DNA of 64,000 bases from an uncultured Bifidobacteriaceae bacterium (GCA_964356125.1 CAYHHH010000008.1:4337-68336), one strand, 5' to 3'. Shown: positions 23,697 through 44,149, numbered from the stretch's first letter. Made by a program: numbers and translations. Notes: generated by a model from the letters alone, not told the origin.

Positions 23697-24664
23697 TGCC
23701 TGTTGTCTCGCACGCTTTGAACGTAACCCCGACGGTGGTTCTCATCGACGGGCTCACGCGATCAGGCAAGTCGCTCCTGGGACCGGTCCTCTCCAGCTTT
23801 GACCGGGTCGAGATCGAGCGGCTTGAGCCGGACGTGGAGTGGATGGGTGACCTGGCCCACTTAGGCCGGGTCGAAAGAGATGCTGCTGTGACCTTCTTGC
23901 GCCTTACGGTCGATCGCTTGTTTTACGAAGGCTTGATCGGTCGCAATACCAACTTCCGATTTGGCGATCATTCGAGTGTGTGGCGCGCGCCGTCGCGTTG
24001 GCGATACTTCCGGCGCCTGTTGTTGGACGAGCGCCTGCCGCTGCTGGACCGAGTGGCCAATGAAAGGCCGATTTTCCAGAACATGGTGCATCACCAGTTG
24101 ATGAACCTACCGCTCTACGCCGAGGCGTTTGGCGACCGTCTTCGAATGATTGAGATGGTTCGCGACCCCGTTGATCTGATTGATTCCTGGATGCGCAAGG
24201 ACAAAGGCGCCTTGATCGGAAATGATCCGCTGATCAGCATGGTATTCATCGAACGTGGCGGCAGGGAGCTGCCGTGGTACGCCGCCGGCTGGGAAGATGA
24301 GTACCTGGCCGCAAGCCCGCTCGACCGTGTGATCCGTCTCATCGCGACCAAATGGCGGCTGTCGATCGACGCTTGGCGGGCGGCCGACGAGACCCTTCGT
24401 TCGCGGCTGTTGATGATACCGTTCGAGGACTTCGTTCAGAGAACGGGCGACTACATCGACTGTCTGGGATCTTTCGTCGGCACCAGACCCACCCGGCGCA
24501 CCGCAGCCATGCTGCGATCCCAGCGATGTCCCCGCCTCTACGAGCGCTCCAAACGCGATGAGCGGTTGCTCCGCTTTCGGCGAGATGCCGGGCCCACTGC
24601 CCGGGCCGCGCTGGATGCGATGGTTGGCGAGCACGGCCAGGTAGCCACAGAAATTGCGATCTGA
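23696..24664 (+). CDS. Putative PAPS-dependent sulfotransferase
   Basis: 5'-PSB-like loop GLTRSGKS near the N-terminus and 3'-PB-like MVRDPVDLIDSW. Genomic context with sat/cysC. Confidence 0.7.
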   Translation: MPVVSHALNVTPTVVLIDGLTRSGKSLLGPVLSSFDRVEIERLEPDVEWMGDLAHLGRVERDAAVTFLRLTVDRLFYEGLIGRNTNFRFGDHSSVWRAPSRWRYFRRLLLDERLPLLDRVANERPIFQNMVHHQLMNLPLYAEAFGDRLRMIEMVRDPVDLIDSWMRKDKGALIGNDPLISMVFIERGGRELPWYAAGWEDEYLAASPLDRVIRLIATKWRLSIDAWRAADETLRSRLLMIPFEDFVQRTGDYIDCLGSFVGTRPTRRTAAMLRSQRCPRLYERSKRDERLLRFRRDAGPTARAALDAMVGEHGQVATEIAI

Positions 24665-24683
24665 CAGAAAGGAACCCACGAGC

Positions 24684-26615: not shown

Positions 26616-26657
26616 CCGCCGCTGGAAACTGTCTATTGTGATCGGCTGACCTGGCGG

Positions 26658-28559
26658 GTGGGCGTGCGGTTGGCGGCCGATCGAATGCGGGGCCGCATGA
26701 CGTCGAGCGAACTGTGGCTGCTCGACGGCCCTCCCAACACAGTCCGGGCCCGGCTGATCGCGCAACTGCTGACCCTTGTTGGTGTGCAGTGGAAGGAAGC
26801 GCGGTTTTTTGCCGGTCATCTTCGGACGCCCAGTAGGGAGGCCGTGCGCCCGGCGGCGCGAAGGCTCGCGTTCCGAATGGCGTCCGACGCAGCGACCGAG
26901 CTATTGGTTCACTCGTCGCTGTTGTCGCGGTTGAATCAAGAGTGGGGCCGCAACACGCTCACGTTGTTCTTGGCCCGACGGCTTTGGCCGGCCGCGGAAC
27001 GGGTCGCGTTGCGGGCGCTGGTAGCCGAGGCGCTTGCCCGCCAGCGCGGCGGTGGCGCCCGCGTGATGCTGACCTGGCCTGTCGAACTGCCCCAATTGCT
27101 GTCCACCCTCTCGGGGGCGATGTCCCCGGGTGTTTCGGTAGGCATCGGCGCACTTGATCGCGGCACGTGGCGTAGGTCCCAGGTAAGCCATCAGTATCGT
27201 CGCGGGACGCGGTACGCGCGAGTTCTGGCGCTCGTCTGGCTCGCTCGAAACGCGATTCGGCGGCCTTTAGCAATCAGTGGTGTTGCCGCCAGTCCTAAGG
27301 ACCTTCCCGCGATCCTTCTGCTGCAAGAAGACGACATTTCCCTCGATCACTCCTATCGCAGCCAGCCGCACTGGCTACGGCCGGGCACCGGTCCGCCACC
27401 CTTCCGCACCGTGATCCTGTGCGCGGGCGGCCCGGCGCGCATCAAGACGACGGCCGATGAGCTCGCCGCCCTGCGCATCGAGACTGTCGAAGCCAACGAG
27501 ATGTGGGCTGGTGTTCGGCAGTGCGCAGAAGGTCGGCGGCTTGTCCGGCAGGCATGGCGCATCGCCTTGCTGGCGCTGTTCGCTCGCCGAGGCAACACCG
27601 GCCGGGCGATGTCGGAGGTGGCCCGGCTGACAGCCACCGCCGCCGCCATGGCGGCCTTAGTGAAGCGTCATGGTATTCGGGCCTTCATGACATGCGAAAA
27701 CTACATGGTTCACGCTGACGCCATGCAGATCGTCGCTGGACCCCTCGCGGTCCGCACGTTGTCGTATCAGTACTCGAGCCTGCCGTATCCGAGCCTCGCG
27801 CTCATCACCACGGCGGATGTGGTGGCCACATTCTCGGAGCAGTACCACGACCGTTGGCGCTGGCCAGGATTCCGACCTCCGGAATTTGTCGATAGTGGGT
27901 ATCCCTACGATGCGAGCTTCGTGCTCGTCCGACAGCGGGCCTTGGCGTGTCGTGCGCGACTGCAGGCCGCCGGCGCGAGTTTTGTGGTCGGGGTCTTCGA
28001 CGAGAGCGTCGAGCGGGAGCGCTACGGGCTAGTTCACGCGGATGAATATGAAGCGCAGCTATTTGCTCTCCTGGACAAAGTGTCCAGAGATTCTTCGCTT
28101 GGATTGGTGTTCAAGACGCAGTTCCTGCACAACTTGGCCGGGATCTCGGAAGGATTGCGGCACGCCCTGCTGGCCGCCCAAGCCACGGGCCGGGTCGAGC
28201 TCCCCGCCGTTGGCACGCACCGTAACGTGGTGTTTCCGGCTGAAGTCGCGATGGCATCCGACATCACGGTCGGCTATGTCATCGGGGGCACAGCCTCACT
28301 CGAGTCCGCGCTGGCCGGCGCCCGGAGTGTGATCGTCAACTCCTACGGGTTCGTGACTGATATGGACGATCTCTTTGCCCAGGCCGACATCATGCTGCCG
28401 ACGCTGGCCAATGCTCTCGAGGCCATCGACAGCCATCGACGTGGAGAACGGCCGCTGCTGGGAGATTGGACCAGCATTCTTCCGTCGTTTGACCACTATC
28501 GTGATGGCGGTGCGGCCGATCGATTGAAGGAAGTCGTGGCTCGAGCCACTGGCCAATAG
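26658..28559 (+). CDS. Large hypothetical protein with GT-B-like C-terminal half (candidate unusual glycosyltransferase)
   Basis: No family motif recognised in the N-terminal half. C-terminal LGLVFKTQFLH ... DITVGYVIGGTASLESALAGARSVIV resembles the donor-binding Rossmann of GT-B enzymes. Alternative ATG start at 26697. Confidence 0.45.
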   Translation: MGVRLAADRMRGRMTSSELWLLDGPPNTVRARLIAQLLTLVGVQWKEARFFAGHLRTPSREAVRPAARRLAFRMASDAATELLVHSSLLSRLNQEWGRNTLTLFLARRLWPAAERVALRALVAEALARQRGGGARVMLTWPVELPQLLSTLSGAMSPGVSVGIGALDRGTWRRSQVSHQYRRGTRYARVLALVWLARNAIRRPLAISGVAASPKDLPAILLLQEDDISLDHSYRSQPHWLRPGTGPPPFRTVILCAGGPARIKTTADELAALRIETVEANEMWAGVRQCAEGRRLVRQAWRIALLALFARRGNTGRAMSEVARLTATAAAMAALVKRHGIRAFMTCENYMVHADAMQIVAGPLAVRTLSYQYSSLPYPSLALITTADVVATFSEQYHDRWRWPGFRPPEFVDSGYPYDASFVLVRQRALACRARLQAAGASFVVGVFDESVERERYGLVHADEYEAQLFALLDKVSRDSSLGLVFKTQFLHNLAGISEGLRHALLAAQATGRVELPAVGTHRNVVFPAEVAMASDITVGYVIGGTASLESALAGARSVIVNSYGFVTDMDDLFAQADIMLPTLANALEAIDSHRRGERPLLGDWTSILPSFDHYRDGGAADRLKEVVARATGQ

Positions 28560-31951: not shown

Positions 31952-32731
31952 ATGCCCGAATACTTGACCGACCTTTTCAATCTCAACGGCCGGGTCGCCG
32001 CACTCACTGGCGCCGGCGGCTTCCTCGTCGGCGAAATGTGCCGTGGCTTGGGCCGAGCCGGCGTCAAAGTGGCGGCGCTCGACGTCAGTCTGGAGGCTGC
32101 CGAACGAACCGCCGGCGAGTTGCGCGATCAGGGCGCCGACGCCATGGCCCTTGCCGTCGACGTGCGCGACCGCGCCGACTACGAGCGCGCGCTGGCGGCG
32201 ATTCTCGACCGCTGGGGTCGCCTCGATTTCGCCGTCCTGGGCGCCGGCGCCAACGCGCCGACTCCGTTCATGGAGATTCCCCTCGATGAATGGAACAACA
32301 TTCTCGCCGTGCAGCTGACCGGCACCATGCTGGGCTGCCAGGTGTTTGGCGGTCACATGCTCTCGCGCCAGTCGGGATCGATCATCACGATCTCATCGGC
32401 ATCCTCCGGGCCGCCGTTGTCGAAGGCGTTCACCTACTCGGTGGCCAAGGCTGGTGTAAAGAACCTGACGCAGAATCTGGCGCGTGAGTGGGCGACGTCC
32501 AATGTCCGCGTCAATGCGCTGCGTCCGGGGTTCTTCCCGACGGAGTGGAGCAAAACACACTTCATCACGCCCGAGCGGGAGGCCGCGATCCTGGGACACA
32601 CCGCGATGCGGCGTTACGGCCGTCCGGCCGAACTGGTGGGCGCGGTCCTTTGGCTCCTCTCCGATGCCGCCAGCTTCGTGACCGGCGCGGAAGTTCCCGT
32701 CGATGGCGGCTTCACCGCCATGACAATATAG
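31952..32731 (+). CDS. SDR-family oxidoreductase
   Basis: ATG 31952 inside ORF 31634..32731. ALTGAGGFLVGEM, YSVAKAGV (YxxxK) and VDGGFT. Confidence 0.85.
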   Translation: MPEYLTDLFNLNGRVAALTGAGGFLVGEMCRGLGRAGVKVAALDVSLEAAERTAGELRDQGADAMALAVDVRDRADYERALAAILDRWGRLDFAVLGAGANAPTPFMEIPLDEWNNILAVQLTGTMLGCQVFGGHMLSRQSGSIITISSASSGPPLSKAFTYSVAKAGVKNLTQNLAREWATSNVRVNALRPGFFPTEWSKTHFITPEREAAILGHTAMRRYGRPAELVGAVLWLLSDAASFVTGAEVPVDGGFTAMTI

Positions 32732-33050: not shown

Positions 33051-33644
33051 TTGAGGATGCTGCGGCACTCAGCTGACATGCACTGGCTTCTACGTCGGCT
33101 CGTCCAGCTACCGAACTATATCGCGCGGCGTGCGCGCCGATTGTGGTACGCACAGAGATTGCAAGGCCTCGGACCAGGCGCCGACTTGGGACCTCACCTA
33201 CTCGTTCTCGGCGCCGACAGGATTCGCGTCGGCGCGAACTTTTCGTGTTGGCGGCTGTGCACGCTCGCGGCCGCCGGCGGCCGGCTGGAGATCGGCGACC
33301 GCGTGTCGCTTAACGCCAACGTCTATCTCAATGCATGTGGGGGCCACATCACGATCGGCAGCGACGTGCTGATTGGGCCCAATGTCGTCATGCGGGCGAC
33401 CGACCACATCTTCACCGACCCAGCTCGGCCGATCCGGGAACAGGGGCACACCGCAGGCAACATTGCGATCGAGGATGATGTGTGGCTGGGTTCCAATGTG
33501 ACCATTGTGGGCGGCGTCCGCATCGGCCGCGGATCGGTGGTCGCGGCGGGAGCGGTGGTGACGCGCGATGTTGAACCGGGTTCGATCGTGGGCGGAGTCC
33601 CCGCCAGGCTGCTGAAAAAGCGGGGTAGCGAGGTGTCCGAATGA
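33051..33644 (+). CDS. Left-handed beta-helix (hexapeptide-repeat) acyl/acetyltransferase
   Basis: Hexapeptide repeats IGDRVSLNANVYL, IGSDVLIGPNVV, IEDDVWLGSNVTIVGGVRIGRGSVVAAGAVV and a GGVPARLL tail. TTG 33051 or ATG 33057. Confidence 0.85.
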   Translation: MRMLRHSADMHWLLRRLVQLPNYIARRARRLWYAQRLQGLGPGADLGPHLLVLGADRIRVGANFSCWRLCTLAAAGGRLEIGDRVSLNANVYLNACGGHITIGSDVLIGPNVVMRATDHIFTDPARPIREQGHTAGNIAIEDDVWLGSNVTIVGGVRIGRGSVVAAGAVVTRDVEPGSIVGGVPARLLKKRGSEVSE

Positions 33645-34441
33645 TTGTGACTGCCTGCGATCTCCTCGCCCTGGGGATGGACGCCTGTGACAGGTTTCAT
33701 GTTCTCAATGTGCAGCCCATTCTTGTTCGCACTAAACCCGACGGCACGGCTGTGACGCGCGTTGACACCGAGATCGACCTTTTCTTGCGCGCGCGCTTGA
33801 TACGTGTGGTGCCAGACGCGGGGTGGTTGTCGGAAGAGAGTGGCGCCGATCCCGATCGGCTCACTCGCTCGTGCTGCTGGGTCGTCGATCCGCTGGACGG
33901 CACGAAGGAGTTCGCTCGAGGCATTCCTGAGTGTGCGATATCGGTTGCACTGGTTCACCACGGGGTTGCGGTTGCGGCAGTGGTCGTCAATCCCTTCAAC
34001 GGGCTGGCCGCGGCGTGCGGCACCGATGGCACCTGGATCGCCTCTGGAGAGGGATCCAGCCGGCCGCGCGCGGCAAGCCTGATGACTGCCGGCGCCAGTG
34101 TCAGCCGCACGGAAGTGGAAGACGGTTCGATCACGCCGTTTCTTGAGCGGGTCGGGACCGCGCGCCCGATTGGCAGTGTGGCGTACAAGCTGTTGCGCGT
34201 CGCGGTTGGCCTCGACGACTTGACGTTCTCGGTACAGCCTAAGTCTGAATGGGACATCTGCGGCGGCGTGGCCCTTCTCGCGGCGCAGGGATTGGCGTTC
34301 GAGCGGCTCGACGGCCGGACCCAGGTGTTCAATCAGGCTGCGACGCGGATTCCGGTGGGGTTCGTCGCTGGCCCTCCTCACCTTGCCCGCGAACTTGCCA
34401 GCCAACTCCGATCGGCGCTGCCGACTGAGGGTGCCTCCTGA
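33641..34441 (+). CDS. Inositol-monophosphatase-family phosphatase, likely 3'(2'),5'-bisphosphate nucleotidase (CysQ-like)
   Basis: WVVDPLDGTKEF and WDICGGVALL IMPase/CysQ motifs. The cluster also encodes PAPS synthesis and a sulfotransferase. Confidence 0.75.
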   Translation: MIVTACDLLALGMDACDRFHVLNVQPILVRTKPDGTAVTRVDTEIDLFLRARLIRVVPDAGWLSEESGADPDRLTRSCCWVVDPLDGTKEFARGIPECAISVALVHHGVAVAAVVVNPFNGLAAACGTDGTWIASGEGSSRPRAASLMTAGASVSRTEVEDGSITPFLERVGTARPIGSVAYKLLRVAVGLDDLTFSVQPKSEWDICGGVALLAAQGLAFERLDGRTQVFNQAATRIPVGFVAGPPHLARELASQLRSALPTEGAS

Positions 34442-35538
34442 TGGTGCCGCGACATACGTCACGTGCGATCGATGTTGCCCGGGGTCTGGCCGCGCTGGGC
34501 GTGATCTGGGGACACGCCATCTACAACCTCGGCATACCACTCGAATTGAACGGTGCCTTCTGGGTTTGGGTGTTCCTGCCGATTAGTGGCTACCTCGTTG
34601 GGCGTAGTTTCACCGATGGCGGTTATCGACTCGACCTTGCCGGCTTTGGTCGTTTTCTCCGGAACCGTTCCCTTCGCATCGTCCCGTTGGCGACGCTGGC
34701 GCTCGTGATTGGCCTTACCATTCACCTGGCGGCCGGTGTGGCTGTGCCCGATGGTGCCTGGCGCCAGTTTCTCTTCGTGCCAGCCGGCAACGACATGTCA
34801 TTGGTCGGACCACTCTGGACGGTTGCGGCCGAGATTCAGTTCTACGTACTGGCCGTGGTGCTGGTGCCGCTGATGGCCGGCGCTTGGCGGCTGGCCGGCG
34901 GGGTCGGCGGTCTCACTCTCTGGATCCTGATCGTTGCGGCCTGGGTTGCATCCGTAGCGGATGCCGGGGGACAGCCCCGCACGCTGATCGGCAATCTGGC
35001 GTTCTTCGTGTTCGGCCTGCTGCTCGCTTCCGCCCGTCCCTTGCGCATGCGCTACGTGCGCACCATGCAAGTCGTGTTGGTGGCCGCGGCCGCCGGACTC
35101 GCGTGGTGGCTCCAGAACTACAAGGCTGAATACTTCTGGCGTTGGGGCCCGCACACGGGGTGGCCGCTTGGCGGCGGGGCGGCCTGCGCCATATTCATCA
35201 CCGCCGCGGTGGTACTGCTCGGCGTCCTGAATGAGGAGCCATCGGAGTCGTGGCGCCGCCCGCCGCATGGCTTGATCCTGCGGGCTTTGGCATGGTGCGG
35301 GTTCTACACATACGGCATCTACGTCTGGCACTCGATCCTGGCCGTGTTCAACTATCAGGTCGTTCATATCCCGCCCGGCCCGGTGCGCCTCGCGCTGCTC
35401 TTGATCGCGGTGCCGCTCGCGCCGCTCAGTTATCGCTGGTTGGAACAGCCCTTCTTGCGCCTCAAGTCGTCTCGATCGCGTGACGCGGCGACGGACAACA
35501 AACTCATGCCGTCACCGGGTGCCGCCCATGTCGTCTGA
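34441..35538 (+). CDS. Membrane acyltransferase family 3 (OafA/WecH-like O-acyltransferase)
   Basis: N-terminal RAIDVARGLAALGVIWGH motif and about 10 predicted TM segments. Confidence 0.8.
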   Translation: MVPRHTSRAIDVARGLAALGVIWGHAIYNLGIPLELNGAFWVWVFLPISGYLVGRSFTDGGYRLDLAGFGRFLRNRSLRIVPLATLALVIGLTIHLAAGVAVPDGAWRQFLFVPAGNDMSLVGPLWTVAAEIQFYVLAVVLVPLMAGAWRLAGGVGGLTLWILIVAAWVASVADAGGQPRTLIGNLAFFVFGLLLASARPLRMRYVRTMQVVLVAAAAGLAWWLQNYKAEYFWRWGPHTGWPLGGGAACAIFITAAVVLLGVLNEEPSESWRRPPHGLILRALAWCGFYTYGIYVWHSILAVFNYQVVHIPPGPVRLALLLIAVPLAPLSYRWLEQPFLRLKSSRSRDAATDNKLMPSPGAAHVV

Positions 35539-36286
35539 TACACGCGTCGTTCTCGTCACCGGTGGTGGCCGTGGCATTGGCGCCGCCATTTCGCGGGCGT
35601 TCATCGCCGACGGCGATCGCGTCGCCATTGCCTCGCGCACTGACGATGGCCTTGCAGCCGCCCTCGGCGCGTCCGCTTGCCACATCGCCGCGGATGCCGC
35701 CGATGCCGCGCAGGTGAACGCCGCGGTGGCGCGGGTCGTCTCCTGGGGCGGCCGCCTCGACGTGGTGATCAACAACGCCGGCATGTCGGCGTGGCGTCCG
35801 CTCGAGCAGATTGACGACGCCTTCTGGGCGCAGATGCTCGCGGTCAACCTGTCGAGCGTCCTCTACGTGTGCCGTGCCGCCGCTCCGCATCTCGCGGGTG
35901 GCGCCGCGATCGTCAATGTCTCGAGCCTGGCCGGCAAGCGAGGCAGTGCCAACAACGCGGCGTACTGCGCCGCGAAGTTTGGCGTCAACGGCCTGACGCA
36001 GTCGCTGGCCAAGGAGCTCGGCCCCCGCGGCGTCCGCGTCAATGCCGTGTGCCCGGTGTATGTCGATACGGCGGGATTGCGCGAGGCGCTACTGGAGCCG
36101 GCGGCGCCGCCGGCCGGCGGCGGCGTCGACGCGTATCTCGCCGAGTTTGCCCGCACGCAGGCAGCACTGCGGCGGTTGCCGACGGGCGAAGAAGTGGCGG
36201 CGGCTTGTCTAATGCTTTCTGGGCCTGGCGCGTCGGCCATCACGGGTCAGTGCGTCAACGTCGATTGCGGCGTCCTACCCCAGTGA
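35528..36286 (+). CDS. SDR-family oxidoreductase (FabG-like)
   Basis: ATG 35528 inside ORF 35480..36286. VLVTGGGRGIG, NNAG and YCAAKFGV (YxxxK). Confidence 0.85.
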   Translation: MSSDTRVVLVTGGGRGIGAAISRAFIADGDRVAIASRTDDGLAAALGASACHIAADAADAAQVNAAVARVVSWGGRLDVVINNAGMSAWRPLEQIDDAFWAQMLAVNLSSVLYVCRAAAPHLAGGAAIVNVSSLAGKRGSANNAAYCAAKFGVNGLTQSLAKELGPRGVRVNAVCPVYVDTAGLREALLEPAAPPAGGGVDAYLAEFARTQAALRRLPTGEEVAAACLMLSGPGASAITGQCVNVDCGVLPQ

Positions 36287-36329: not shown

Positions 36330-37127
36330 GTGAGTATTTCGGTGCCTGTGCCTTCATATACGGTTGTCATTCCCGCTCGCATGGCGTCGTCACGCTATCC
36401 CGGCAAGCCGCTCGAGTTGATTCTCGGCTTGCCGATGGTCGAGCACGTGCGGCGGCGGGCGCTGCTGGCGGCCGGCGCCTCAGAGGTCGTCGTCGCCACC
36501 TGTGACGACAGCATTCTTGCTGCGGTCACGGCGGCCGGTGGCCGGGCCGTGATGACCGCCGACACCCACGAGCGTTGCACCGATCGCATTGAGGAGGCCA
36601 TGCGCTCGCTGCCCGGTGAGATCGTGGTCATGGTGCAGGGCGACGAGCCGCTGTTGATGCCCGATGCGGTCTCGCGGATCGCGCAGCCGTTGCTCGATCG
36701 CGCCGACGTGAGCTGCACCAACCTGCTGTCGCCGCTCGAGAGCGACGCCGATCTCGACAACCCGAACATTGTGAAGGCCGCCTGCGATCGGTCCGGCCGC
36801 ATCATGTTTTTCACCCGCGCCCGGATTCCGTACTACCGCAGCCGCGTCGACTGTCCGATCTACCGGCAGACCGGCATCATGGGGTTCCGCACCGGCCTGT
36901 TGCGCGCCTACGCGGCGATGCCCGAAACGCCGTTCGAGCGCGCCGAGTCGGTCGACATGCTGCGCCTGCTCGAGCACGGCCATGCGATTCAGGGCGTCGT
37001 GGTCGACTATCCGACGGTCGGCGTCGACCGGCCGGAGGACGTGCCGCTGGTCGAGCGCATTCTCCGCGAGAATGCGGTCCAGCGCGATATTCACGCCCGC
37101 ATCCAAGGGAGAGGTCCGGTCCAATGA
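36330..37127 (+). CDS. KdsB-family cytidylyltransferase (CMP-ulosonic acid synthetase-like)
   Basis: VIPARMASSRYPGKPL, VVVATCDD, HERCTDRI, VQGDEPL and GVDRPEDV, colinear with CMP-Kdo synthetase motifs. Confidence 0.8.
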   Translation: MSISVPVPSYTVVIPARMASSRYPGKPLELILGLPMVEHVRRRALLAAGASEVVVATCDDSILAAVTAAGGRAVMTADTHERCTDRIEEAMRSLPGEIVVMVQGDEPLLMPDAVSRIAQPLLDRADVSCTNLLSPLESDADLDNPNIVKAACDRSGRIMFFTRARIPYYRSRVDCPIYRQTGIMGFRTGLLRAYAAMPETPFERAESVDMLRLLEHGHAIQGVVVDYPTVGVDRPEDVPLVERILRENAVQRDIHARIQGRGPVQ

Positions 37128-38155
37128 CGCGACGTTTACGCGCCGGGATCGTCGGTTACGGCTACATGGGCGAAATTCGCCGCCGCAACATCGATGAGCT
37201 CGACGGTCTCGAGCTGGTCGGCGTCGTCGATCCGTTTGCCGCCGGCCGGCTGCCGGCGAGCGTGGCGGTTTACGATTCGTACCAGGAGCTGGTCGCGGCC
37301 GGCATCGACGCGCTGTTTGTCTGCACGCCGAACCACGTGACGCCCGAAGCCGTGATCTACGGCCTCGAGCACGGCTGCCATGTCTTCAGCGAGAAGCCGC
37401 CGGGCCGGACGCTCGGCGACATCCAGCGCATTGTCGACGCGGAGCGGCGCCATCCGGAACTGAAGCTGGTGTTCGGCTTCAACCATCGCTATCACCCCGG
37501 CATCACCGACGCCAAGGCGATCGTCGACAGCGGTTCGCTCGGGCGAATCCTGACCTTGCGCGGGGTCTACGGCAAGTCGGGCGGTCAGGGCTTCGAGCGA
37601 TCCTGGCGGAACAATCCGGCGGAGGGTGGCGGCGGCATTCTGCTGGATCAAGGCATCCACATGCTCGACCTGTTCCGTTTTTTCTGCGGTGACTTCGACG
37701 AAGTGGTTGGCTTCATCAATGCCGCCTACTGGGAGATTCCGGTCGAGGACAACGCGATGGTCCTGCTGCGCAACCGCGCCGGCCAGGTCGCGCATCTCCA
37801 CTCGTCGGCGACGTCGTGGAAGCACACGTTCCGGCTCGAGATTGGGCTCGAGCGCGGCTACCTGACGATCAGTGGTCTGTTGTCCAAGACCGGCAGCTAC
37901 GGCCGCGAAACCTTGCTGGTCGGCCGCCGTCCCGCCAGCGGGGAAGCCTCAGCGCTCGGCAATCCGCGTGAAGAGCTGACCTACTACGACAGCGACCCGT
38001 CGTGGATCGCCCAGGTCGACCGCTTCGTCGACTGCATCCTGACCAACACGCCGGTGACCGAGAGCAGCGCCCACGACGCGCTGCGCGTAATGGAGATCGT
38101 CGACACGGTGTACCGGAGTGCGGCCGAGCGGTCGCCGCGGGGAGTGACGTCATGA
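37124..38155 (+). CDS. Gfo/Idh/MocA-family NAD(P) oxidoreductase
   Basis: GIVGYGYMG Rossmann, EKPP motif (FSEKPPGRT) and a C-terminal alpha/beta domain. Confidence 0.85.
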   Translation: MTRRLRAGIVGYGYMGEIRRRNIDELDGLELVGVVDPFAAGRLPASVAVYDSYQELVAAGIDALFVCTPNHVTPEAVIYGLEHGCHVFSEKPPGRTLGDIQRIVDAERRHPELKLVFGFNHRYHPGITDAKAIVDSGSLGRILTLRGVYGKSGGQGFERSWRNNPAEGGGGILLDQGIHMLDLFRFFCGDFDEVVGFINAAYWEIPVEDNAMVLLRNRAGQVAHLHSSATSWKHTFRLEIGLERGYLTISGLLSKTGSYGRETLLVGRRPASGEASALGNPREELTYYDSDPSWIAQVDRFVDCILTNTPVTESSAHDALRVMEIVDTVYRSAAERSPRGVTS

Positions 38156-39156
38156 AGACCGTTGTGTCGCTGCAGGATCTGCTCGACGGCGAAATCCGGC
38201 CGCAGGCGCTGATCGCCGAGTATCAGGGATTGGTCGACCGCGACCTCAGGCAATGGTGGGCGGCGCATCCGCTTCGCGCGGTGCCGTGCCCGGCGTGCCA
38301 GAGCGATCGATCGACGCCGGCCTTCGAGCGGTTCGGCGCCCGTTACTGCCAGTGCGAGGGCTGTGCCTCGTTGTTCGTCTCGCCGCGCCCGGACGAAGCG
38401 GCGCTGGTCGAGTTCTACCGCGATGCACCGGCGGCGAAGTTCTGGCGCGAGCGGATCTGGCCGACCACGGCGGCGACGCGCCGCGAGAAGCTGGCGCGGC
38501 CCCGCGCGGAGTGGGTCAACGAAGGGCTTGCCGAGTATGCGCCGAAGGCGGTCAGTGGTCTCGACATCAGTCCGTACGGTGGCGCCGTGGCCGAAGAACT
38601 GGCGCGCGCCGGACGGCCGATGATGGCGGCAGCGTGGCTGGCCGATCTCGATATTCCGTCGCCGGTCGACGGTGTCACCGTGCGGCCGTCGCTCATCACC
38701 GGTCTGTCGGCAATCGGGCCAAGGGATTTCGTGACCGCGTTCGACGTCCTCGACCGCGCCGCGGACGTCCCGGCGCTGATGGCCGCGGTCGCCGAGGTGT
38801 TGCCGCCCGGCGGACTGTTGTTCCTCACGGCGACCAACGCCGATGGCTTCGACCTGCAGGTCCTGTGGTCCAAGGCGCCGACGCTGGCGCCTCCCGACAA
38901 GCTCAACGTGTTGTCGGTCGACGGCCTGCTGAAGCTGCTGTCGGGTCCGGAATGGGAAGTGCTGGAGTTCAGCACCCCAGGCTTGTTCGATGTCGAGCAA
39001 GTGCGGCGGGCGGTCGCCGCCGACCCCACCGGTGATTGGCCCAGGCCGGTGCGCCGTTTGCTGGCGCGCGGCGGCGGCGCGCTCGACGATTTCCAGGAAT
39101 TCCTCCAGCGCCATCGCCTGGCGTCATTTGCCCGCCTCGTCGTGCGGCGGCGGTAA
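38152..39156 (+). CDS. Zn-ribbon-containing methyltransferase-fold protein (degenerate SAM motif I)
   Basis: ATG 38152 ATGA-coupled. CPACQS...CQCEGCASLFVSPRP Cys pairs. Motif I reads LDISPYGG instead of DxGxGxG. Paralog of 40603..41610 and 12707..13561. Confidence 0.6.
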   Translation: MKTVVSLQDLLDGEIRPQALIAEYQGLVDRDLRQWWAAHPLRAVPCPACQSDRSTPAFERFGARYCQCEGCASLFVSPRPDEAALVEFYRDAPAAKFWRERIWPTTAATRREKLARPRAEWVNEGLAEYAPKAVSGLDISPYGGAVAEELARAGRPMMAAAWLADLDIPSPVDGVTVRPSLITGLSAIGPRDFVTAFDVLDRAADVPALMAAVAEVLPPGGLLFLTATNADGFDLQVLWSKAPTLAPPDKLNVLSVDGLLKLLSGPEWEVLEFSTPGLFDVEQVRRAVAADPTGDWPRPVRRLLARGGGALDDFQEFLQRHRLASFARLVVRRR

Positions 39157-39173
39157 GAGAAGGGACGAAGCCA

Positions 39174-39968
39174 GTGCTCGCAGCCGAGATCAAAGCCAAG
39201 CTGAAGCGGGGCGAAGTGAGCCTCGGGTCGTGGATGTCCATGGCCCATGTGTCGATCGCCGAGATCCTCGCTTCGGCGGGATACGACTGGGTGGTGATCG
39301 AGACCGAACACACCGCGATCGACAACCACGAGGTGTTGCGCCTGCTGCCCGCAATCGAACATGCCGGGGCGGTACCGCTCGTGCGGCTGGCATGGAACGA
39401 CGCCATCCAGTGCAAGGCCGTGCTCGATTCCGGCGCTGCCGGGGTGCTGGTGCCCATGGTGAATTCGCGCACCGAAGCCGAGCTCGCCGTGAAAGCAGTG
39501 AAGTACCCGCCGATGGGTACCCGCGGCGTCGGCCTCGCGCGGGCGCAACATTACGGTGAGCGGTTCGCCGAGTACGTTGCGCAGGCCAACGATTCGACCT
39601 TGCTAATCGTGCAGATCGAGCACGTGGATGCAGTGCGCAACATTGAGGAGATTCTCGACGTGCCCGGCATCGACGGCACGTTCATCGGACCGTACGACCT
39701 GTCCATGTCGATGGGCCTACCCGGCCAGCTCGACCATCCCGATATTCTGCAGGCACGTCGCCGCGTCCTCGAGGCCACCAAGGCCCGGGGCCTTGCACCG
39801 GGTATCCACCTGGTGCATCCGGACCGGGCAGTTGCCGACATTGCTTCGGTCATCGCCGAGGGCTACCAGTTCATCGCCCTGGGTACCGACATTCTGTTCC
39901 TGGGCGATTCGTGCCGCGCCGTCCAGCGCGCCACGGCCGCCGCGGTGTCAGCCGTCGCGCCGAAGTGA
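39174..39968 (+). CDS. HpcH/HpaI-family class II (metal-dependent) pyruvate aldolase
   Basis: GTG 39174 inside ORF 39036..39968. GSWMSMAHVSIAEILASAGYDWVVIETEH, VRLAWND, VLVPMVNS, YPPMGTRG, IEHVDAV and GPYDLS. Confidence 0.85.
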   Translation: MLAAEIKAKLKRGEVSLGSWMSMAHVSIAEILASAGYDWVVIETEHTAIDNHEVLRLLPAIEHAGAVPLVRLAWNDAIQCKAVLDSGAAGVLVPMVNSRTEAELAVKAVKYPPMGTRGVGLARAQHYGERFAEYVAQANDSTLLIVQIEHVDAVRNIEEILDVPGIDGTFIGPYDLSMSMGLPGQLDHPDILQARRRVLEATKARGLAPGIHLVHPDRAVADIASVIAEGYQFIALGTDILFLGDSCRAVQRATAAAVSAVAPK

Positions 39969-40606
39969 GCCGCGTCCGCGCACTGGTTCTCGATTTCGAT
40001 GGTGTGATCCTCGAGTCGAACGATCTGAAGACGGCGGCATTCGACGCCGTGTTTTCGCGGTTTCCCGAACACCAGGCCGCGATGATGGCGTTTCACCACG
40101 CTCATGTCGCCGAATCACGCTACGTCAAGTTCCGGCACCTGGCGACCGCACATCTCGGCCGGCCTGCCGATGACCCGATCGTCGAAGAGCTGGTCACTGG
40201 ATTTTCAACCGAGATGCAGGCCCGTCTTGCACGGTGCCCGATGGTCGCAGGCGCCGACGCGTTCCTGGATCGCGTGCGCGGCCGCTTACCGTTGTACCTC
40301 GCCTCGATGACTCCCGCCGCCGAACTCGACGACCTGCTGGCGCTTCGTGGTCTGCGGGCGACCTTTACTGGGGTCTACGGATGCCCGCCGTGGCCCAAGG
40401 AGCAGGCCTTGAACGAAATTGTGGCCGTGCACGGCCGCGACGGACTGCTGTTCATCGGCGATTCGGCTGGCGATCAACGCGCGGCCGCGCGGACCGGCAT
40501 CGAATTCATCGGCCGTGACAGCGGCTTGCCGTTCGACGAGCCGCTTCCGCGGTCGTATCCCAACATGGTCGAACTCCTCTCAGCCATCGACGAGCGTTTG
40601 CCATGA
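39965..40606 (+). CDS. HAD-superfamily hydrolase/phosphatase
   Basis: GTG 39965 GTGA-coupled. DxD motif VLDFDGVILES, ASMTP and IGDSAGD. Paralog of 30353..31024. Confidence 0.8.
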   Translation: MSRVRALVLDFDGVILESNDLKTAAFDAVFSRFPEHQAAMMAFHHAHVAESRYVKFRHLATAHLGRPADDPIVEELVTGFSTEMQARLARCPMVAGADAFLDRVRGRLPLYLASMTPAAELDDLLALRGLRATFTGVYGCPPWPKEQALNEIVAVHGRDGLLFIGDSAGDQRAAARTGIEFIGRDSGLPFDEPLPRSYPNMVELLSAIDERLP

Positions 40607-41610
40607 CTACGCCGATGCGCGAGAACGACATCAGGCCCAAGGCGCTGCTCGACGAGTTCTTTGCCCGCTTGAAGCGTGACGCGGATCGCCTGGCGGCGCG
40701 CCGCGCCTCGTTCGTCGACGTGCCTTGTGGCCTGTGCGGATCGGCCGACAGCGCTCAGACCTTCGTGAAAGACGGATTCCCTTATCGCACCTGCAGCTCG
40801 TGCAGCTCGCTGTTTGCCAGCCCGCGCCCGACCGAAGCCGCCCTGATCGACTACGCGGAGACCTCCGAAGCGGTGGAATTCTGGAGCACGCATTTTTATC
40901 GCGAGACCGCGGCCGCTCGCCGGGAGCGGATGTTCCGGCCGCGCGCCGCGCTCGCCATGGAGATCGCCTCGCGCTACGGGCTGACCGGTGAGGTCAGAGC
41001 CGCTGACGTCGGTGCCGGCTACGGCCTGTTCCTGCTCGAACTGCAGGCGATTGCTCCGGCGTGGTCGCTCACGGCAATCGAACCGGATCAGCGGTTGGCA
41101 GCCGTCTGTCGCGAACATGGGCTCGAGGTCGATCAGCGGTGGGTGGAGCAGATCGGCGATGGCGAGCTGGGCATGGATTTCGTCGCCGCCTTCGAGGTGA
41201 TCGAGCACGTGTTCGATCCGGCGGCGTTCATCGACGCCTGCCGGCGGCTGCTGCGGCCAGGCGGTATCGCGCTCGTCACGACGCTCACCATTTCCGGATT
41301 CGATCTCCAGGTGCTCGGCGCCGCATCGCGCTCAATCACGCCGCCTCAGCACTTGAATTTCCCTTCGGTCGCGGCAGTGGCGCGGCTGGCGGCGCGCACC
41401 GGCTTCGAGGTCGTTGAAGTGTCCACGCCCGGGCAGCTCGACGTCGATATCGTTCGTAACGTCTATCTTGAACATCCGGAGTTCGTGCAGGACGCCTTCG
41501 CGCGCTCTATGGCCATGGCGGGTGACGAGACGCGACAGGCCTTCCAAGCCTTCTTACGCGAGCATCGCATGAGCTCGCATCTGAGGTGCGTGCTTCGCCG
41601 TGTGCGGTGA
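40603..41610 (+). CDS. Class I SAM-dependent methyltransferase with Zn-ribbon N-terminus
   Basis: CGLCGS...CSSCSSLFASPRP, motif I DVGAGYG and LRPGGIALV. Confidence 0.75.
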   Translation: MTTPMRENDIRPKALLDEFFARLKRDADRLAARRASFVDVPCGLCGSADSAQTFVKDGFPYRTCSSCSSLFASPRPTEAALIDYAETSEAVEFWSTHFYRETAAARRERMFRPRAALAMEIASRYGLTGEVRAADVGAGYGLFLLELQAIAPAWSLTAIEPDQRLAAVCREHGLEVDQRWVEQIGDGELGMDFVAAFEVIEHVFDPAAFIDACRRLLRPGGIALVTTLTISGFDLQVLGAASRSITPPQHLNFPSVAAVARLAARTGFEVVEVSTPGQLDVDIVRNVYLEHPEFVQDAFARSMAMAGDETRQAFQAFLREHRMSSHLRCVLRRVR

Positions 41611-43556
41611 CGGCTCGGCGGCTGCTGGTCCTCGACTCGTACGATGCATCGATCGTGCGGCAGATTACCGGCGACGGCCGGGACTGGGATGTCCTGCTGC
41701 TGGGCATCGATGAACGGTGGTTCCGGCGGCTGTCGCCGGAGCTGGTGCCGGCCGACGATCGCGTGCGCTACCTGGACCTGACGAGCGTCGCCGCGCAGGC
41801 GCACGAGCAGGTCCGTGAGTTCGTGCTCGGGACGGTTGCCATGCTGGGGCACCAGCCGGTCGACGGCGTACCACTATGGCAGGCGCTCGCATCGGCCGGC
41901 TCATCGTGGTGGTACCTCGAAACCACTGAGAAGGGCCCTTACCGGACGCCGCTCGTGTCTCAGCTCTACGCGCTCGCGCTCTTCGCGCAGGTCCGGGAGC
42001 GCACGAGGTATACCTCCCATGTCGTCGCCACGCGCCATTCGTGGCTGGCGCGCGCGGCCTCGTCCCTCGATCGCTGCGCCGTCTCTCGACTCGGCGCCTC
42101 GCTGCCGGCGCCACCCTCACAGCCACGGCGCGACTATCTGCGGCATGCGGCCACCGCCGCCGCGACCGTCGCGGTCGCACGGCTTGCCGCCTGGCGCGGA
42201 CGATGGCCTCGTATCGCGTTGCCGGCTGGACGAACCTGGGTGTTCAGTTTTCTGCCGGCATGGTGGACCAGACCGTTGGACCCGCAGTTGGCCAGCGAGC
42301 GTTTTTTCCCGGCGCCACCTGCCGGGGTTGCGTTTGTCGGCTGGGTCCACACGCCGCAGTTGCTGTGGCGGTCGCGACGGGAGTTGGCCGAGGTGATCGC
42401 CGCCCGGCAGATTCTGGTGCTCAACCGGCTCGTGCCATGGCGGACTGTGCTTGGGCTCCTGTCGCCTCGGCGGTTCTTCCGTTTCATGCGCATCGTTGAT
42501 GGCATTCGGCGGCTGCCCGAGTTGAAGTTCGCCGGTGTCGATGCCGGGCCGGTGGTGGCGCGCGACCTCGAACGCTCGCTGACGGGCGGCGAAGTCTTTC
42601 AAGACCAGATGCTGGCTGAAGCAATGGCGCGGTTTGCGCGCCAGCAGCAGCCCCGCATAGTGGCCTATCGAGCAGAGTTTCAACCGGCGGAGCAAGCCGT
42701 GCTGACAGGTCTGCGAGGGCTGTCTCGCGCCGTGGGCTTTGTCCACTATCCGTTCGGCCGCCGTTACCTTTCGATGTACGAATCGCCAGCAACAACCAGC
42801 CCGGGAACTCCTGAACGCTTGGCGCCCGACGCGTTCATCAGTTGCGGCGCCGTCGGACGGGAGCACCTGATCGACGCCGGCTACCAGGCGGAGCGCATTG
42901 CGCTCTGCGGCCCGCAGCGTCACCCGAACCTGGTGACGCGGCTGCGGCAGCCGATCGATCGCACCGCGACGCGAGGCGCGCTCGGTCTCGATCCCGGCAC
43001 GCCCGTTATGCTGGTGGCGATTGCGATCGAGCAAGCGGACACGGAAGCGTTGTTCGGAGCGCTCCTGGACGCGCTCGACGCCTTTGGCCCGTGGCGGATC
43101 TGGATTCGCACACATCCCAACCGTCCCGGCGGAGATTCCGCCCTGAAGTACGCGCTGGCATCGCTTGGGCCTGAGCGCGCGGTCTTGGTTCCCGACGCCG
43201 TTTCACTCTATGACACGTTGATCGCGAGCGATGTGTTGGTGACGATCGGTTCGACCCTCGCATTCGAGGCCCTGGCCCTTGGATGTCAGGCGATCGCCTT
43301 CGAAACGCCGGCCACGTATGCCGCGACCTCGCTCGCCGAGTTTTCGGACGCGATCCACGTCGTGCACGATGCGGCAGAGCTGCAGCGGGCGCTCGATGAG
43401 ATCATTGGCCGCGCCCCAGCGGCGCTGGCGCGGCAAGCGTGCTGGCATCGTACGGTGACCCGGATGCTTGGCGACCTGTCGACCCCGCTCCCGCGACAGT
43501 TTGACCACGCCATGGCCGGACTCGGCCTGGCGCCAATGCCCGAAGGAGAATCATGA
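41607..43556 (+). CDS. Large hypothetical protein with GT-B-like C-terminal half (candidate ulosonic-acid transferase, KpsC/KpsS- or TagF-like)
   Basis: GTG 41607 GTGA-coupled. C-terminal IWIRTHPN ... DVLVTIGSTLAFEALALGCQAIAF resembles the K/R-x-HP and S-T-x-x-E-A motifs of the Capsule_synth/TagF GT-B families. Weak motif-level call only. Confidence 0.45.
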   Translation: MTARRLLVLDSYDASIVRQITGDGRDWDVLLLGIDERWFRRLSPELVPADDRVRYLDLTSVAAQAHEQVREFVLGTVAMLGHQPVDGVPLWQALASAGSSWWYLETTEKGPYRTPLVSQLYALALFAQVRERTRYTSHVVATRHSWLARAASSLDRCAVSRLGASLPAPPSQPRRDYLRHAATAAATVAVARLAAWRGRWPRIALPAGRTWVFSFLPAWWTRPLDPQLASERFFPAPPAGVAFVGWVHTPQLLWRSRRELAEVIAARQILVLNRLVPWRTVLGLLSPRRFFRFMRIVDGIRRLPELKFAGVDAGPVVARDLERSLTGGEVFQDQMLAEAMARFARQQQPRIVAYRAEFQPAEQAVLTGLRGLSRAVGFVHYPFGRRYLSMYESPATTSPGTPERLAPDAFISCGAVGREHLIDAGYQAERIALCGPQRHPNLVTRLRQPIDRTATRGALGLDPGTPVMLVAIAIEQADTEALFGALLDALDAFGPWRIWIRTHPNRPGGDSALKYALASLGPERAVLVPDAVSLYDTLIASDVLVTIGSTLAFEALALGCQAIAFETPATYAATSLAEFSDAIHVVHDAAELQRALDEIIGRAPAALARQACWHRTVTRMLGDLSTPLPRQFDHAMAGLGLAPMPEGES

Positions 43557-44149
43557 CGTTCGCAGCGCAGTATTTTAAAGAAGCCATCCAGATCCTGGAA
43601 CAACTTGACGCCGCCGCAGTCGAGCGGATGGCCGACGTGCTCGTCGATCTCCGCACCCGTGGCGGCCGCCTGTTCCTGCTCGGCGTGGGCGGCGGCGCCG
43701 GCCACGCTTCGCACGCGGTCAACGACTTTCGGAAGATCGCCGGCATCGAGGCGTATTCGCCGGTCGACAACGTCTCGGAGCTGACCGCGCGCGCCAACGA
43801 CGAAGGTTGGGACACCACCTTTGCCGCGTGGCTCGCCGGCAGCCGCCTCAGGGCCGAGGATGCGGTTCTGGTGTTTTCGGTCGGCGGCGGCAGCCTCGAC
43901 AAGAACGTCAGCGCCAACATCGTTCGCGCCCTGGAGCTCGCCGTCGAGCGCAAGGCCACTGTTCTCGGCATCGTCGGCCGCGATGGTGGCTTCACCGCCA
44001 AGGTCGCGACCGCCTGTGTCATCGTGCCGACCGTGAATCCGGCGCACGTGACGCCTCATACCGAATCGTTCCAGGCCCTGGTCTGGCACGCGCTGGTGGC
44101 GCACCCGAAGCTTCAGCAGGTTACGAACAAGTGGGAATCGCTCAAGTGA
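43553..44149 (+). CDS. SIS-domain sugar-phosphate isomerase (GmhA/KdsD-like)
   Basis: RLFLLGVGGGAGHASHAVNDF and VFSVGGGS SIS motifs. Confidence 0.85.
   Translation: MTFAAQYFKEAIQILEQLDAAAVERMADVLVDLRTRGGRLFLLGVGGGAGHASHAVNDFRKIAGIEAYSPVDNVSELTARANDEGWDTTFAAWLAGSRLRAEDAVLVFSVGGGSLDKNVSANIVRALELAVERKATVLGIVGRDGGFTAKVATACVIVPTVNPAHVTPHTESFQALVWHALVAHPKLQQVTNKWESLK

Follow-up and report, generated by a model that had tools for sequence, protein, structure and literature searches.

All natural routes to CMP-ulosonic acids known to us depend on PEP-dependent synthases, and for every CMP-activated keto sugar acid of which we are aware (Kdo, sialic acid, Kdn, Pse and Leg) that synthase belongs to the KdsA or the NeuB family; genome surveys therefore rely on these two markers. 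The gene block 36330-44149 of the DNA stretch analyzed here (64 kb in length, hereafter the window) raises the question of whether a class II pyruvate aldolase may take the place of such a synthase. We give about an even chance (roughly 0.5) to the block belonging to a mobile module whose product is a CMP-activated 2-keto sugar acid and which dispenses with a PEP-dependent KdsA/NeuB synthase, an estimate that applies to the aldolase route jointly with the proposed product class, an ulosonic or ulosaric acid.

Profile searches located all eight ORFs of the block on the + strand. Six of their seven junctions are 4-nt start/stop overlaps and the remaining one is a 17-nt gap; together with the HMM family matches, this bears out the initial annotation, which had described eight coupled genes of defined families. 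In order, these genes encode a KdsB-family (PRK13368-type) cytidylyltransferase (36330-37127; CTP_transf_3, 131 bits), a Gfo/Idh/MocA NAD(P) oxidoreductase (37124-38155; Pfam), a Zn-ribbon methyltransferase-fold protein termed MTZn (38152-39156; weak Methyltransf_23 match, 36 bits), a class II HpcH/HpaI pyruvate aldolase (39174-39968), a HAD-IA type phosphatase (39965-40606; Pfam Hydrolase and HAD_2), a Zn-ribbon class I SAM methyltransferase termed MT2 (40603-41610; Methyltransf_23/11/12/25), a GT-B fold protein (41607-43556; no Pfam match, assigned with AlphaFold and Foldseek) and a GmhA-like sugar-phosphate aldose-ketose isomerase (43553-44149; Pfam SIS_2). The ORF listed for MTZn from 38002 begins too early and 38152 was taken as its start. 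The true start of the aldolase is a GTG at 39174, with an AAGGGA Shine-Dalgarno-like sequence upstream.

The same gene order is shared by the window and 24 other loci from at least 10 phyla, a recurrence that places the arrangement far above chance. These 25 loci, in which the aldolase is at least 56% identical to that of the window, are referred to as the main type; their hosts include Acidobacteriota, Desulfobacterales, Chlorobium, Anaerolineales, Verrucomicrobiota, Bacteroidota, Gemmatimonadota, Nitrospiraceae and Acidimicrobiia, among others. The order reads acetyltransferase, SDR, SDR, KdsB-like cytidylyltransferase, Gfo/Idh/MocA enzyme, methyltransferase-like protein, HpcH aldolase, HAD phosphatase, 2-hydroxyacid dehydrogenase, GmhA-like isomerase and transaldolase. 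The real unit is thus larger than the eight genes originally delimited. In the window it takes in, all of them on the + strand, the SDR oxidoreductase SDR2 (31994-32731; adh_short_C2, 171 bits), whose start could be placed only roughly (the ORF opens at 31634, the domain near 31994), a hexapeptide-repeat, WbbJ/O-acetyltransferase-like acetyltransferase (33051-33644; Pfam Hexapep; NCBIfam WbbJ-like, 76.8 bits), the SDR oxidoreductase SDRup (35480-36286; adh_short, 177 bits), which lies directly upstream of the cytidylyltransferase, and a small transaldolase (57110-57883) that belongs to the TIGR02134 equivalog (338.5 bits versus a cutoff of 281.95). The eight-gene unit also left out the 2-hydroxyacid dehydrogenase, which is part of the module in most genomes (it follows the aldolase and the HAD phosphatase in 19/25 loci) and is missing from the window.

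Conservation differs from gene to gene. The Gfo/Idh/MocA enzyme is present in all 25 main-type loci, the HAD phosphatase in 21, the isomerase in 18 and the acetyltransferase in 14, as well as in variant loci. SDRup is found in 18/25 loci (40-78% identity), each time just 5′ of the cytidylyltransferase, and SDR2 orthologues (60-84% identity) lie upstream of that gene in 15/25. SDR2, with a D-mannonate oxidoreductase-like family as best NCBIfam match (222 bits, under the cutoff of 281), probably provides a tailoring step. The co-occurrence sought for the whole eight-gene block was found as regards its order, which recurs in the 24 loci, but not as regards MT2 and the GT-B protein; these are present in only 7/25 (MT2 also in several variant loci) and are lineage-specific additions. 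The transaldolase, moved 13 kb away from the block in the window, adjoins the isomerase in other genomes: it comes right after it in eight loci (L002, L015, L018, L019, L022, L072, L074, L078), and in L013, L014 and L020 a non-orthologous transaldolase (31-32% identity) occupies that position. As the transaldolase is a module member elsewhere, the aldolase is not the only C-C bond former of the module, contrary to what had been assumed. A smaller cassette is also common; it consists of aldolase, cytidylyltransferase, PGDH-like dehydrogenase, extended SDR and HAD phosphatase, and a five-gene copy is carried by plasmid NZ_CP094833.1 of the cultured Acuticoccus sp. I52.16.1.

The assignment of the aldolase to the HpcH/HpaI class is straightforward. 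It scores 142 bits with PF03328 (cutoff 25), matches E. coli HpaI (2v5j) at 6e-53, and the HpaI catalytic positions E45/H46, R71, Q147, E149 and D175 are invariant across the main and variant aldolase clades, so that the metal ligands and the catalytic Arg and His are retained. The protein falls under the equivalog cutoffs for HpaI (217.5 vs 368.8), GarL (177.6 vs 406.75) and RhmA (176.4 vs 441). The characterised HpcH aldolases that we know of are catabolic and act on small aldehydes. With 56-84% identity across phyla, the aldolase is among the best-conserved components of the module. Its linkage to other genes was counted only where each flank of the aldolase extended for 3.5 kb or more. A cytidylyltransferase lies within 3.5 kb of the aldolase in 19/19 main-type loci and in 20/29 variant loci, being directly adjacent in 15 of the latter; for more distant aldolases the figure is only 2/19. 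Comparative genomics could hardly show a tighter link, and this link is particular to one clade of aldolases. The pairing is kept even where a non-orthologous NeuA/PseF-like enzyme replaces the KdsB-like one, as on the Acuticoccus plasmid.

Both profile and BLASTP searches confirmed that neither KdsA nor NeuB is encoded inside the block. BLASTP with E. coli KdsA gave no match in the window or in any module locus examined, and the DAHP_synth_1 Pfam domain does not occur among the about 58 window ORFs. Within 10 kb of the aldolase, KdsA was found in 0/19 main, 0/29 variant and 0/19 distant loci, and NeuB in 2/19 main and 4/29 variant loci; homologous blocks are hence not always accompanied by one of these synthases, although the host genomes may carry either gene outside the loci examined. 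The proposal that the aldolase stands in for the synthase, put forward from the block itself, gains from this combination. Because the module linkage is conserved, KdsA is absent and NeuB rare within 10 kb and the catalytic residues are intact, it is the best-supported reading, although we would trust it only about half-way. That a widespread, horizontally mobile family of pathways uses a class II pyruvate aldolase instead of any PEP-dependent KdsA/NeuB synthase to produce CMP-activated 2-keto sugar acids is a broader proposal, for which we judge the odds to be slightly less than even.

The absence of a synthase holds for the block but not for its surroundings. Two NeuB-family synthases, overlooked by the initial annotation, are encoded in the window on the same strand as the block: a PseI (15229-16278; 489.5 bits vs a cutoff of 340), about 20 kb upstream of it, and a divergent NeuB (8516-9532). 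It had equally been passed over that the window, together with 4.6 kb upstream, contains no other cytidylyltransferase, PseF included; for this reason the KdsB-like enzyme could, in this window alone, serve PseI/NeuB. As a general explanation, its being the missing PseF was ruled out: it scores 22.4 bits with the PseF model TIGR03584 (cutoff 205.7) and travels with the aldolase, not with NeuB. Co-inheritance of PseI with the module, considered in view of 66-70% identity in L015 and L022, was also rejected, since PseI proteins are simply highly conserved, with 77-82% identity to the Gallionella and Thiobacillus proteins, and none of the best 120 PseI matches could be tied to a contig with an aldolase match.

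The presence of these synthases bears on a different role for the aldolase, namely the supply of a side chain. The flagellin glycan of Treponema denticola contains a Pse-type sugar with a 2-methoxy-4,5,6-trihydroxyhexanoyl group (PMC13439194), and the consecutive aldolase, HAD, 2-hydroxyacid dehydrogenase and methyltransferase genes in L001, L004, L065 and L066 could build such a moiety. Pyruvate and glyceraldehyde(-3-P) would be condensed, the product dephosphorylated, its C2 keto group reduced and O-methylated; the resulting 3-deoxy-2-O-methyl-aldonic acid would be the N-acyl substituent of a NeuB/PseI-made nonulosonic acid, which the cytidylyltransferase would activate. The window does have PseB-, PseC- and PseI-type genes, an FkbH protein and an ATP-grasp protein, without PseF, and NeuB-family genes lie near L015, L022, L025, L029, L102, L106, L122 and L149. 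We nevertheless consider this route unlikely: 17/19 main and 25/29 variant loci have no NeuB within 10 kb, 20.8 kb of closely packed glycan genes in L002 include neither aminotransferase nor NeuB, and the conserved core includes no amide ligase and no CoA ligase. The route would leave the isomerase, the transaldolase, the Gfo/Idh/MocA enzyme and the SDRs without a role, it requires the 2-hydroxyacid dehydrogenase that the window lacks, and the cytidylyltransferase is KdsB-like, far from the PseF model.

How far the block resembles the Kdo pathway was judged from its remaining enzymes, three of which had been assigned to Kdo roles. For the cytidylyltransferase the assignment stands at the level of the KdsB models, whereas the isomerase and the phosphatase are alike at the superfamily level only. 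The isomerase (198 aa; SIS_2, 32 bits) has no CBS domain and so departs from the SIS (PF01380) plus CBS pair architecture of KdsD; it is GmhA-like, with phosphoheptose isomerases of the PDB matching at 2e-9, although its scores with GmhA models (35-45 bits) are far under the cutoffs of 209-320. Of the E. coli GmhA positions H61, E65, Q172 and H180, which we take to be catalytic or Zn residues, three are kept in 16 isomerase orthologues and E65 is replaced by D. The HAD protein shows the motifs DFDGV, SMTP, K and GDSAGD and is of the IA type, not a KdsC-type HAD-IIIA enzyme; its NCBIfam matches are weak and to phosphoglycolate phosphatase (22 bits). Its PDB matches, designed repeat proteins only, were discarded as composition artefacts.

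The cytidylyltransferase passes the KdsB models NF009905 (266.3 vs 255), NF003952 (242.7 vs 193) and TIGR00466 (167.1 vs 155.2) and is under the cutoff of NF003948. KdsB structures of the PDB align with it end to end (1e-46 to 1e-28), the motifs IPAR..S.R.PGKP, QGDEP and GVD.PED are conserved and the catalytic residues are intact. As it passes the kdsB equivalog cutoff, the protein may be a true CMP-Kdo synthetase. Group 2 capsule loci carry kpsU and kpsF without kdsA, the same kdsA-free pattern of a KdsB-family copy and an isomerase, and the hosts of the module are mostly Gram-negative. By analogy, the cytidylyltransferase would only boost ordinary CMP-Kdo for a Kdo-containing polysaccharide, with Kdo itself coming from housekeeping KdsA and KdsC, and the aldolase and its neighbours would be unrelated. 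Several data make such a duplication improbable. It does not explain the clade-specific adjacency to the aldolase, which persists with a NeuA-like enzyme, and KpsF is of the KdsD type (SIS and CBS), while the module isomerase is not; neither do capsule loci have the aldolase, the HAD phosphatase, the transaldolase or the oxidoreductases. The module also occurs in Anaerolineales and Acidimicrobiia, lineages in which neither LPS nor Kdo is expected. Moreover, this cytidylyltransferase clade has moved between phyla along with the aldolase, and it shows changes of its own in the C-terminal sugar-binding domain, the domain that in KdsB binds Kdo (PMC3149649). NF009905 is a separate NCBIfam subfamily, and a variant member scores 311 there and only 144 against the kdsB equivalog cutoff of 155.

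With the aldolase as the source of the keto acid, a route can be drawn in which the transaldolase (57110) and the GmhA-like isomerase (43553) would provide an aldose phosphate. The class II aldolase (39174) would then join pyruvate to the aldose-phosphate aldehyde through a new C-C bond to give the keto acid, the HAD enzyme would remove the phosphate and the KdsB-like enzyme (36330) would join the anomeric C2 hydroxyl to CMP, the activation and the hydrolysis of pyrophosphate driving the reversible aldol step towards synthesis. In loci with the PGDH-like dehydrogenase, this enzyme and HAD may instead supply hydroxypyruvate as the donor. The scheme assigns no role to the 2-hydroxyacid dehydrogenase found in 19/25 main-type loci, a point against it: if this enzyme reduced the 2-keto group, the product would be unfit as a glycosyl donor. 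Tailoring of the sugar would fall to the Gfo/Idh/MocA enzyme, both SDRs, the acetyltransferase and the methyltransferase(s), the first of them presumably by oxidising a ring hydroxyl (among solved structures it is closest to inositol 2-dehydrogenase, glucuronide 3-dehydrogenase, DgpA and YjhC), and the GT-B protein (41607) would transfer the CMP-sugar to a polysaccharide. There is a slim chance that in the main type a heptose- or octose-type phosphate is fed in, giving a new ulosonic acid of C10 or more.

The same aldolase-to-CMP logic could instead yield a small dicarboxylic 3-deoxy-2-ulosaric acid, Dha-like and made by GarL/HpaI-type chemistry, the acceptor being an aldehyde-acid delivered by the dehydrogenases and not the aldose phosphate of a Kdo-like monocarboxylic sugar. 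HpaI and GarL, the nearest characterised relatives of the aldolase, make or cleave 2-keto-3-deoxy dicarboxylates, and the minimal cassette has neither isomerase nor transaldolase and always includes the PGDH-like 2-hydroxyacid dehydrogenase and another oxidoreductase. According to a 2012 review (PMC3355719), neither the way Dha is made nor its activated form was known at that time. We regard such a product as quite unlikely: the window has no 2-hydroxyacid dehydrogenase, and the main type, the window included, adds the GmhA-like isomerase and the transaldolase, two enzymes that suggest a sugar phosphate as acceptor; nor is a glycan structure known for any organism that bears the module. That the minimal cassette is the missing route to small ulosonic/ulosaric acids such as Dha we likewise rate as a long shot.

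Returning to the aldolase route to a Kdo-like acid, its general plan is that of the Kdo pathway: sugar-phosphate isomerase, three-carbon keto-acid extension, HAD phosphatase and CTP-dependent activation by a KdsB-family enzyme. It departs from this pathway in that a class II pyruvate aldolase would carry out the C-C step in loci without KdsA, in the types of isomerase (GmhA, SIS_2 without CBS) and HAD (IA, as opposed to IIIA in KdsC), and in the addition of a transaldolase and three or four oxidoreductases. With the NeuB-type pathways (Neu5Ac, Kdn, Pse, Leg) it would have in common a CMP-activated 2-keto-3-deoxy acid, transfer by an HP-motif GT-B enzyme and location in surface-glycan loci, the window itself having PseI; unlike them, most module loci have no NeuB, the cytidylyltransferase is remote from PseF and the core has no aminotransferase. 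Chemists use sialic acid aldolase and CMP-sialic acid synthetase as a one-pot couple for CMP-sialic acids, and the proposed logic, a reversible pyruvate aldolase pulled forward by CTP-dependent activation, is therefore chemically workable. That couple is however a laboratory arrangement; NanA is catabolic in cells, and as a class I (Schiff-base) aldolase it belongs to another fold family than the module aldolase, a metal-dependent class II enzyme. Pairing of a transaldolase with a GmhA-like isomerase recalls the lincomycin octose pathway, in which LmbR (transaldolase) and LmbN (isomerase) build a higher-carbon aldose phosphate. In lincomycin synthesis, kinase and phosphatase steps precede GDP activation of the product, whereas the module has no kinase or NDP-transferase, only the pyruvate aldolase and the CMP-transferase.

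Our literature search retrieved no published aldolase-based CMP-sugar route, in line with the earlier view that this is not a described pathway, and the gene content suggests an undescribed way of making sialic-acid-like surface sugars. If this is true, a whole class of acidic surface sugars would be invisible to KdsA/NeuB-based surveys, and in many genomes the PRK13368-named "3-deoxy-manno-octulosonate cytidylyltransferase" proteins would not be CMP-Kdo makers. The module would also offer a possible origin for ulosonic/ulosaric acids without known biosynthesis, such as Dha (PMC3355719), and for the unassigned C10 CMP-keto acids detected by mass spectrometry (bioRxiv 10.64898/2026.04.20.719630).

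The two lineage-specific proteins and MTZn were analyzed in addition. The AlphaFold model of the GT-B protein (pLDDT 89.3, pTM 0.89) retrieves GT-B structures with Foldseek, WecB/NeuC, TagF and GT4 among them, at E values of 1e-9 to 1e-7 and target-normalised TM-scores of about 0.6. Its family scores are weak (BFO_1060, 23.3 vs 200; TIGR04326, 53.8 vs 250); in L028 and L030, relatives come after the cytidylyltransferase. All 26 homologues compared keep H503-P504-N505, and the D/E-D/E-G motif was not located; in bacterial sialyltransferases the HP motif binds CMP-Neu5Ac (PMC2169525). MT2 has an intact SAM motif, DVGAGYG. MTZn is its full-length paralogue (34% identity, E 5e-47) and has four conserved Cys; its SAM motif, DISPYGG, is not kept among 30 homologues and is degenerate. 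A TcaB9/TylC3-like sugar C-methyltransferase was considered for MTZn; the PDB search returned no sequence relative, and the SAM motif is degenerate as described. In L066 the Gfo/Idh/MocA enzyme is fused to MTZn, which shows only that the two work together.

All eight genes named in the initial annotation are found in the window, with their families as it stated. They belong to a single long + strand glycan gene array spanning 2460-62609, in a window of about 65% G+C, and comprise, all on the + strand, a CTP_transf_3 cytidylyltransferase (36330-37127), a Gfo/Idh/MocA oxidoreductase (37124-38155), a Zn-ribbon methyltransferase-fold protein (38152-39156), an HpcH/HpaI aldolase (39174-39968; 142 bits), a HAD phosphatase (39965-40606), a class I methyltransferase (40603-41610), a GT-B protein without a Pfam match (41607-43556) and a SIS_2 protein (43553-44149). 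Six of the junctions are 4-nt overlaps; 17 nt separate the methyltransferase-like gene from the aldolase, whose GTG at 39174 is preceded by a Shine-Dalgarno-like AAGGGA. The structure predicted for the 41607-43556 product is a GT-B architecture of high confidence (pLDDT 89.3), so that the label "GT-B-like" is correct.

The window aldolase, which falls under the equivalog cutoffs of HpaI, GarL and RhmA, has thousands of relatives, more than 100 of them at 70-86% identity. Loci drawn from metagenome assemblies, a one-genome-per-species scan and a metagenome contig scan, the carriers being mostly metagenome bins, were compared with the window proteins by BLAST, and flanks of up to 10 kb were examined. 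The 25 loci of the main type (aldolase at least 56% identical to that of the window) come from Acidobacteriota, Desulfobacterales, Chlorobium, Anaerolineales, Verrucomicrobiota, Bacteroidota, a betaproteobacterium, Gemmatimonadota, Nitrospiraceae, Acidimicrobiia and a bin labelled Thermotogae. Their conserved gene order is [hexapeptide acetyltransferase], SDR, SDR, cytidylyltransferase, Gfo/Idh/MocA, methyltransferase-like protein, aldolase, HAD, 2-hydroxyacid dehydrogenase, [methyltransferase, GT-B], isomerase, transaldolase. The methyltransferase and GT-B pair is present in only 7 of the 25. The window is without the 2-hydroxyacid dehydrogenase of this order, and the transaldolase lies 13 kb away from its usual place.

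Only loci in which the aldolase has 3.5 kb or more of sequence on either side entered the counts of pairing. A cytidylyltransferase lies within 3.5 kb in all 19 main-type loci (adjacent in 1), in 20 of the 29 variant loci (43-55% identity; adjacent in 15) and in 2 of the 19 distant ones (below 43%; adjacent in 1). NeuB is found within 10 kb in 2, 4 and 1 of these loci, respectively, and KdsA within 10 kb in none of any group. In the variant loci the cassette is minimal, with an aldolase, a cytidylyltransferase, a PGDH-like dehydrogenase, an extended SDR and a HAD; its aldolase and cytidylyltransferase genes usually touch. Several of these loci carry a NeuA/PseF-like cytidylyltransferase next to the aldolase instead of a KdsB-like one, which indicates that the aldolase pairs with a function and not with one gene lineage. 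Such a cassette (locus L150; NZ_CP094833.1, 40686-45138) is carried by Acuticoccus sp. I52.16.1, a marine alphaproteobacterium in culture, on a 97-kb plasmid and consists of an aldolase, a NeuA-family cytidylyltransferase, a phosphoglycerate-dehydrogenase-like enzyme, a HAD and an NAD(P) oxidoreductase; this strain offers a practical experimental host.

Residues important in the respective families are largely retained. The catalytic set of HpaI (His, Arg, Gln, Glu, Asp) is present in the aldolase without exception in the main and variant groups. The SIS protein keeps the GmhA positions H61, Q172 and H180, with E65 replaced by D, and the HAD protein has all four HAD motifs. The window cytidylyltransferase is above the cutoffs of the KdsB models (NF009905, 266.3 vs 255; TIGR00466, 167.1 vs 155.2; PseF, 22 bits) and retains the KdsB nucleotide and metal motifs. 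Its clade-wide changes (RHxGIY to RQTGIM, LEQLR to VDMLR and a 7-residue deletion) all fall in the C-terminal domain, which in KdsB is the Kdo-binding domain (PMC3149649). NF009905 is the best-scoring model for the aldolase-linked cytidylyltransferases (266 bits in the window, 311 in the variant locus L029), and the L029 member (11776-12561) scores high on it yet lies below the kdsB equivalog cutoff, which suggests that the aldolase-linked clade is what NF009905 (PRK13368) describes. The name of the model, "3-deoxy-manno-octulosonate cytidylyltransferase", may mislabel this clade in genome annotations. That the enzyme could be a KpsU-like booster of ordinary CMP-Kdo seems improbable to us, as this leaves the clade-specific pairing with the aldolase unexplained.

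The best reading of the pairing, and of the lack of KdsA within 10 kb, is still the one initially put forward: the aldolase would make a keto acid that the cytidylyltransferase would activate with CMP, to which we assign a probability of about 0.5. For the module as a whole the aldolase is not the only C-C bond-forming enzyme, since a TIGR02134-type transaldolase (57110-57883, + strand), which had been missed, belongs to it in other genomes. Isomerase and transaldolase together suggest that a sugar-phosphate acceptor may be built on site; the pair recalls the LmbR/LmbN step, which belongs to lincomycin octose synthesis. In three loci (L013, L014 and L020) the transaldolase stays 3' of the isomerase despite being of another type (31-32% identical), and this non-orthologous replacement speaks for a need of the activity as such. 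The PGDH-like dehydrogenase and the HAD look like a SerA/SerB pair that has no SerC and might, speculatively, supply a hydroxypyruvate donor or an aldehyde-acid acceptor. A product that is a small ulosaric acid and not a Kdo-like sugar is, in our estimate, rather unlikely.

The two methyltransferase-fold proteins (38152-39156 and 40603-41610) are full-length paralogues (34% identity) with a common Zn ribbon and C-terminal motifs. Only the latter keeps the SAM-binding motif; the former, without its glycine motif, may not be a methyltransferase. In locus L066 (7965-9977) this protein and the Gfo/Idh/MocA enzyme are fused into a single 670-aa protein, which implies that they act together. The GT-B protein, relatives of which follow the cytidylyltransferase in variant loci, has an invariant His-Pro within a stretch weakly matching the Tannerella Pse/Leg-transferase family (PMC5420450); in bacterial sialyltransferases a His-Pro motif binds CMP-Neu5Ac (PMC2169525).

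Two NeuB-family synthases upstream of the block on the same strand had been passed over: PseI (15229-16278, +; 489.5 bits vs 340) and a divergent NeuB (8516-9532, +), accompanied by PseB-like and PseC-like genes. These Pse genes would fit an alternative in which a nonulosonic acid carries a side chain of 3-deoxy-2-O-methyl-aldonic acid made by the aldolase, HAD, dehydrogenase and methyltransferase, a neat account of four genes for which the flagellin glycan of Treponema denticola (PMC13439194) is a precedent; this alternative fails, however, for the many loci without NeuB, aminotransferase or ligase, and we consider it unlikely. Neither a second cytidylyltransferase nor PseF or PseG was found in the 64-kb window or the 4.6 kb upstream of it.

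CMP-ulosonic acid biosynthesis is of a known kind; the CMP-keto acid route proposed here, of which we are no more than half convinced, would differ in a non-homologous C-C bond-forming step. Our literature search found no paper tying HpcH aldolases to CMP-sugar loci. In 2012 it was not yet known in what form Dha is activated (PMC3355719), and unassigned C10 CMP-keto acids are reported from Magnetospirillum (bioRxiv 10.64898/2026.04.20.719630).

Elsewhere in the array, the Pse-type set (PseB-like, 5365-6420; PseC-like, 6448-7644; PseI; GNAT, 16230-16889) is interleaved with a sub-cluster centred on the divergent NeuB (aldo-keto reductase, class-III aminotransferase, xylose-isomerase-like TIM protein, methyltransferase, metallophosphoesterase, ATP-grasp protein), an arrangement of 5365-16889 shared by two other loci, L067 and L068. 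An FkbH-domain protein (TIGR01686, 277.5 bits) followed by a MaoC-dehydratase/SDR fusion (16886-19870) suggests that one of the sugars is substituted with a glyceryl or hydroxyacyl group. APS kinase, ATP sulfurylase and pyruvate kinase are consecutive at 19902-22923, in the same order as in locus L001 (16446-19463), where a sulfotransferase lies 5' of the row; together with a CysQ-like gene of the inositol-monophosphatase family (33641-34441), this points to a sulfated glycan, and the pyruvate kinase could be a source of ATP or pyruvate. Directly 5' of the initiating sugar transferase (61734-62609), a methyltransferase, a DegT aminotransferase and a thiamine-diphosphate E1 alpha/beta pair (57896-61869) may add a two-carbon branch or side chain to an amino sugar. 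Two neighbouring proteins of about 640 aa without family assignment (24654-28559), the first with a sub-threshold asparagine-synthase match, resemble in size and upstream position two no-Pfam genes of L001 (1-2563; 618 and 640 aa) and one of locus L065 (1-528; 646 aa).
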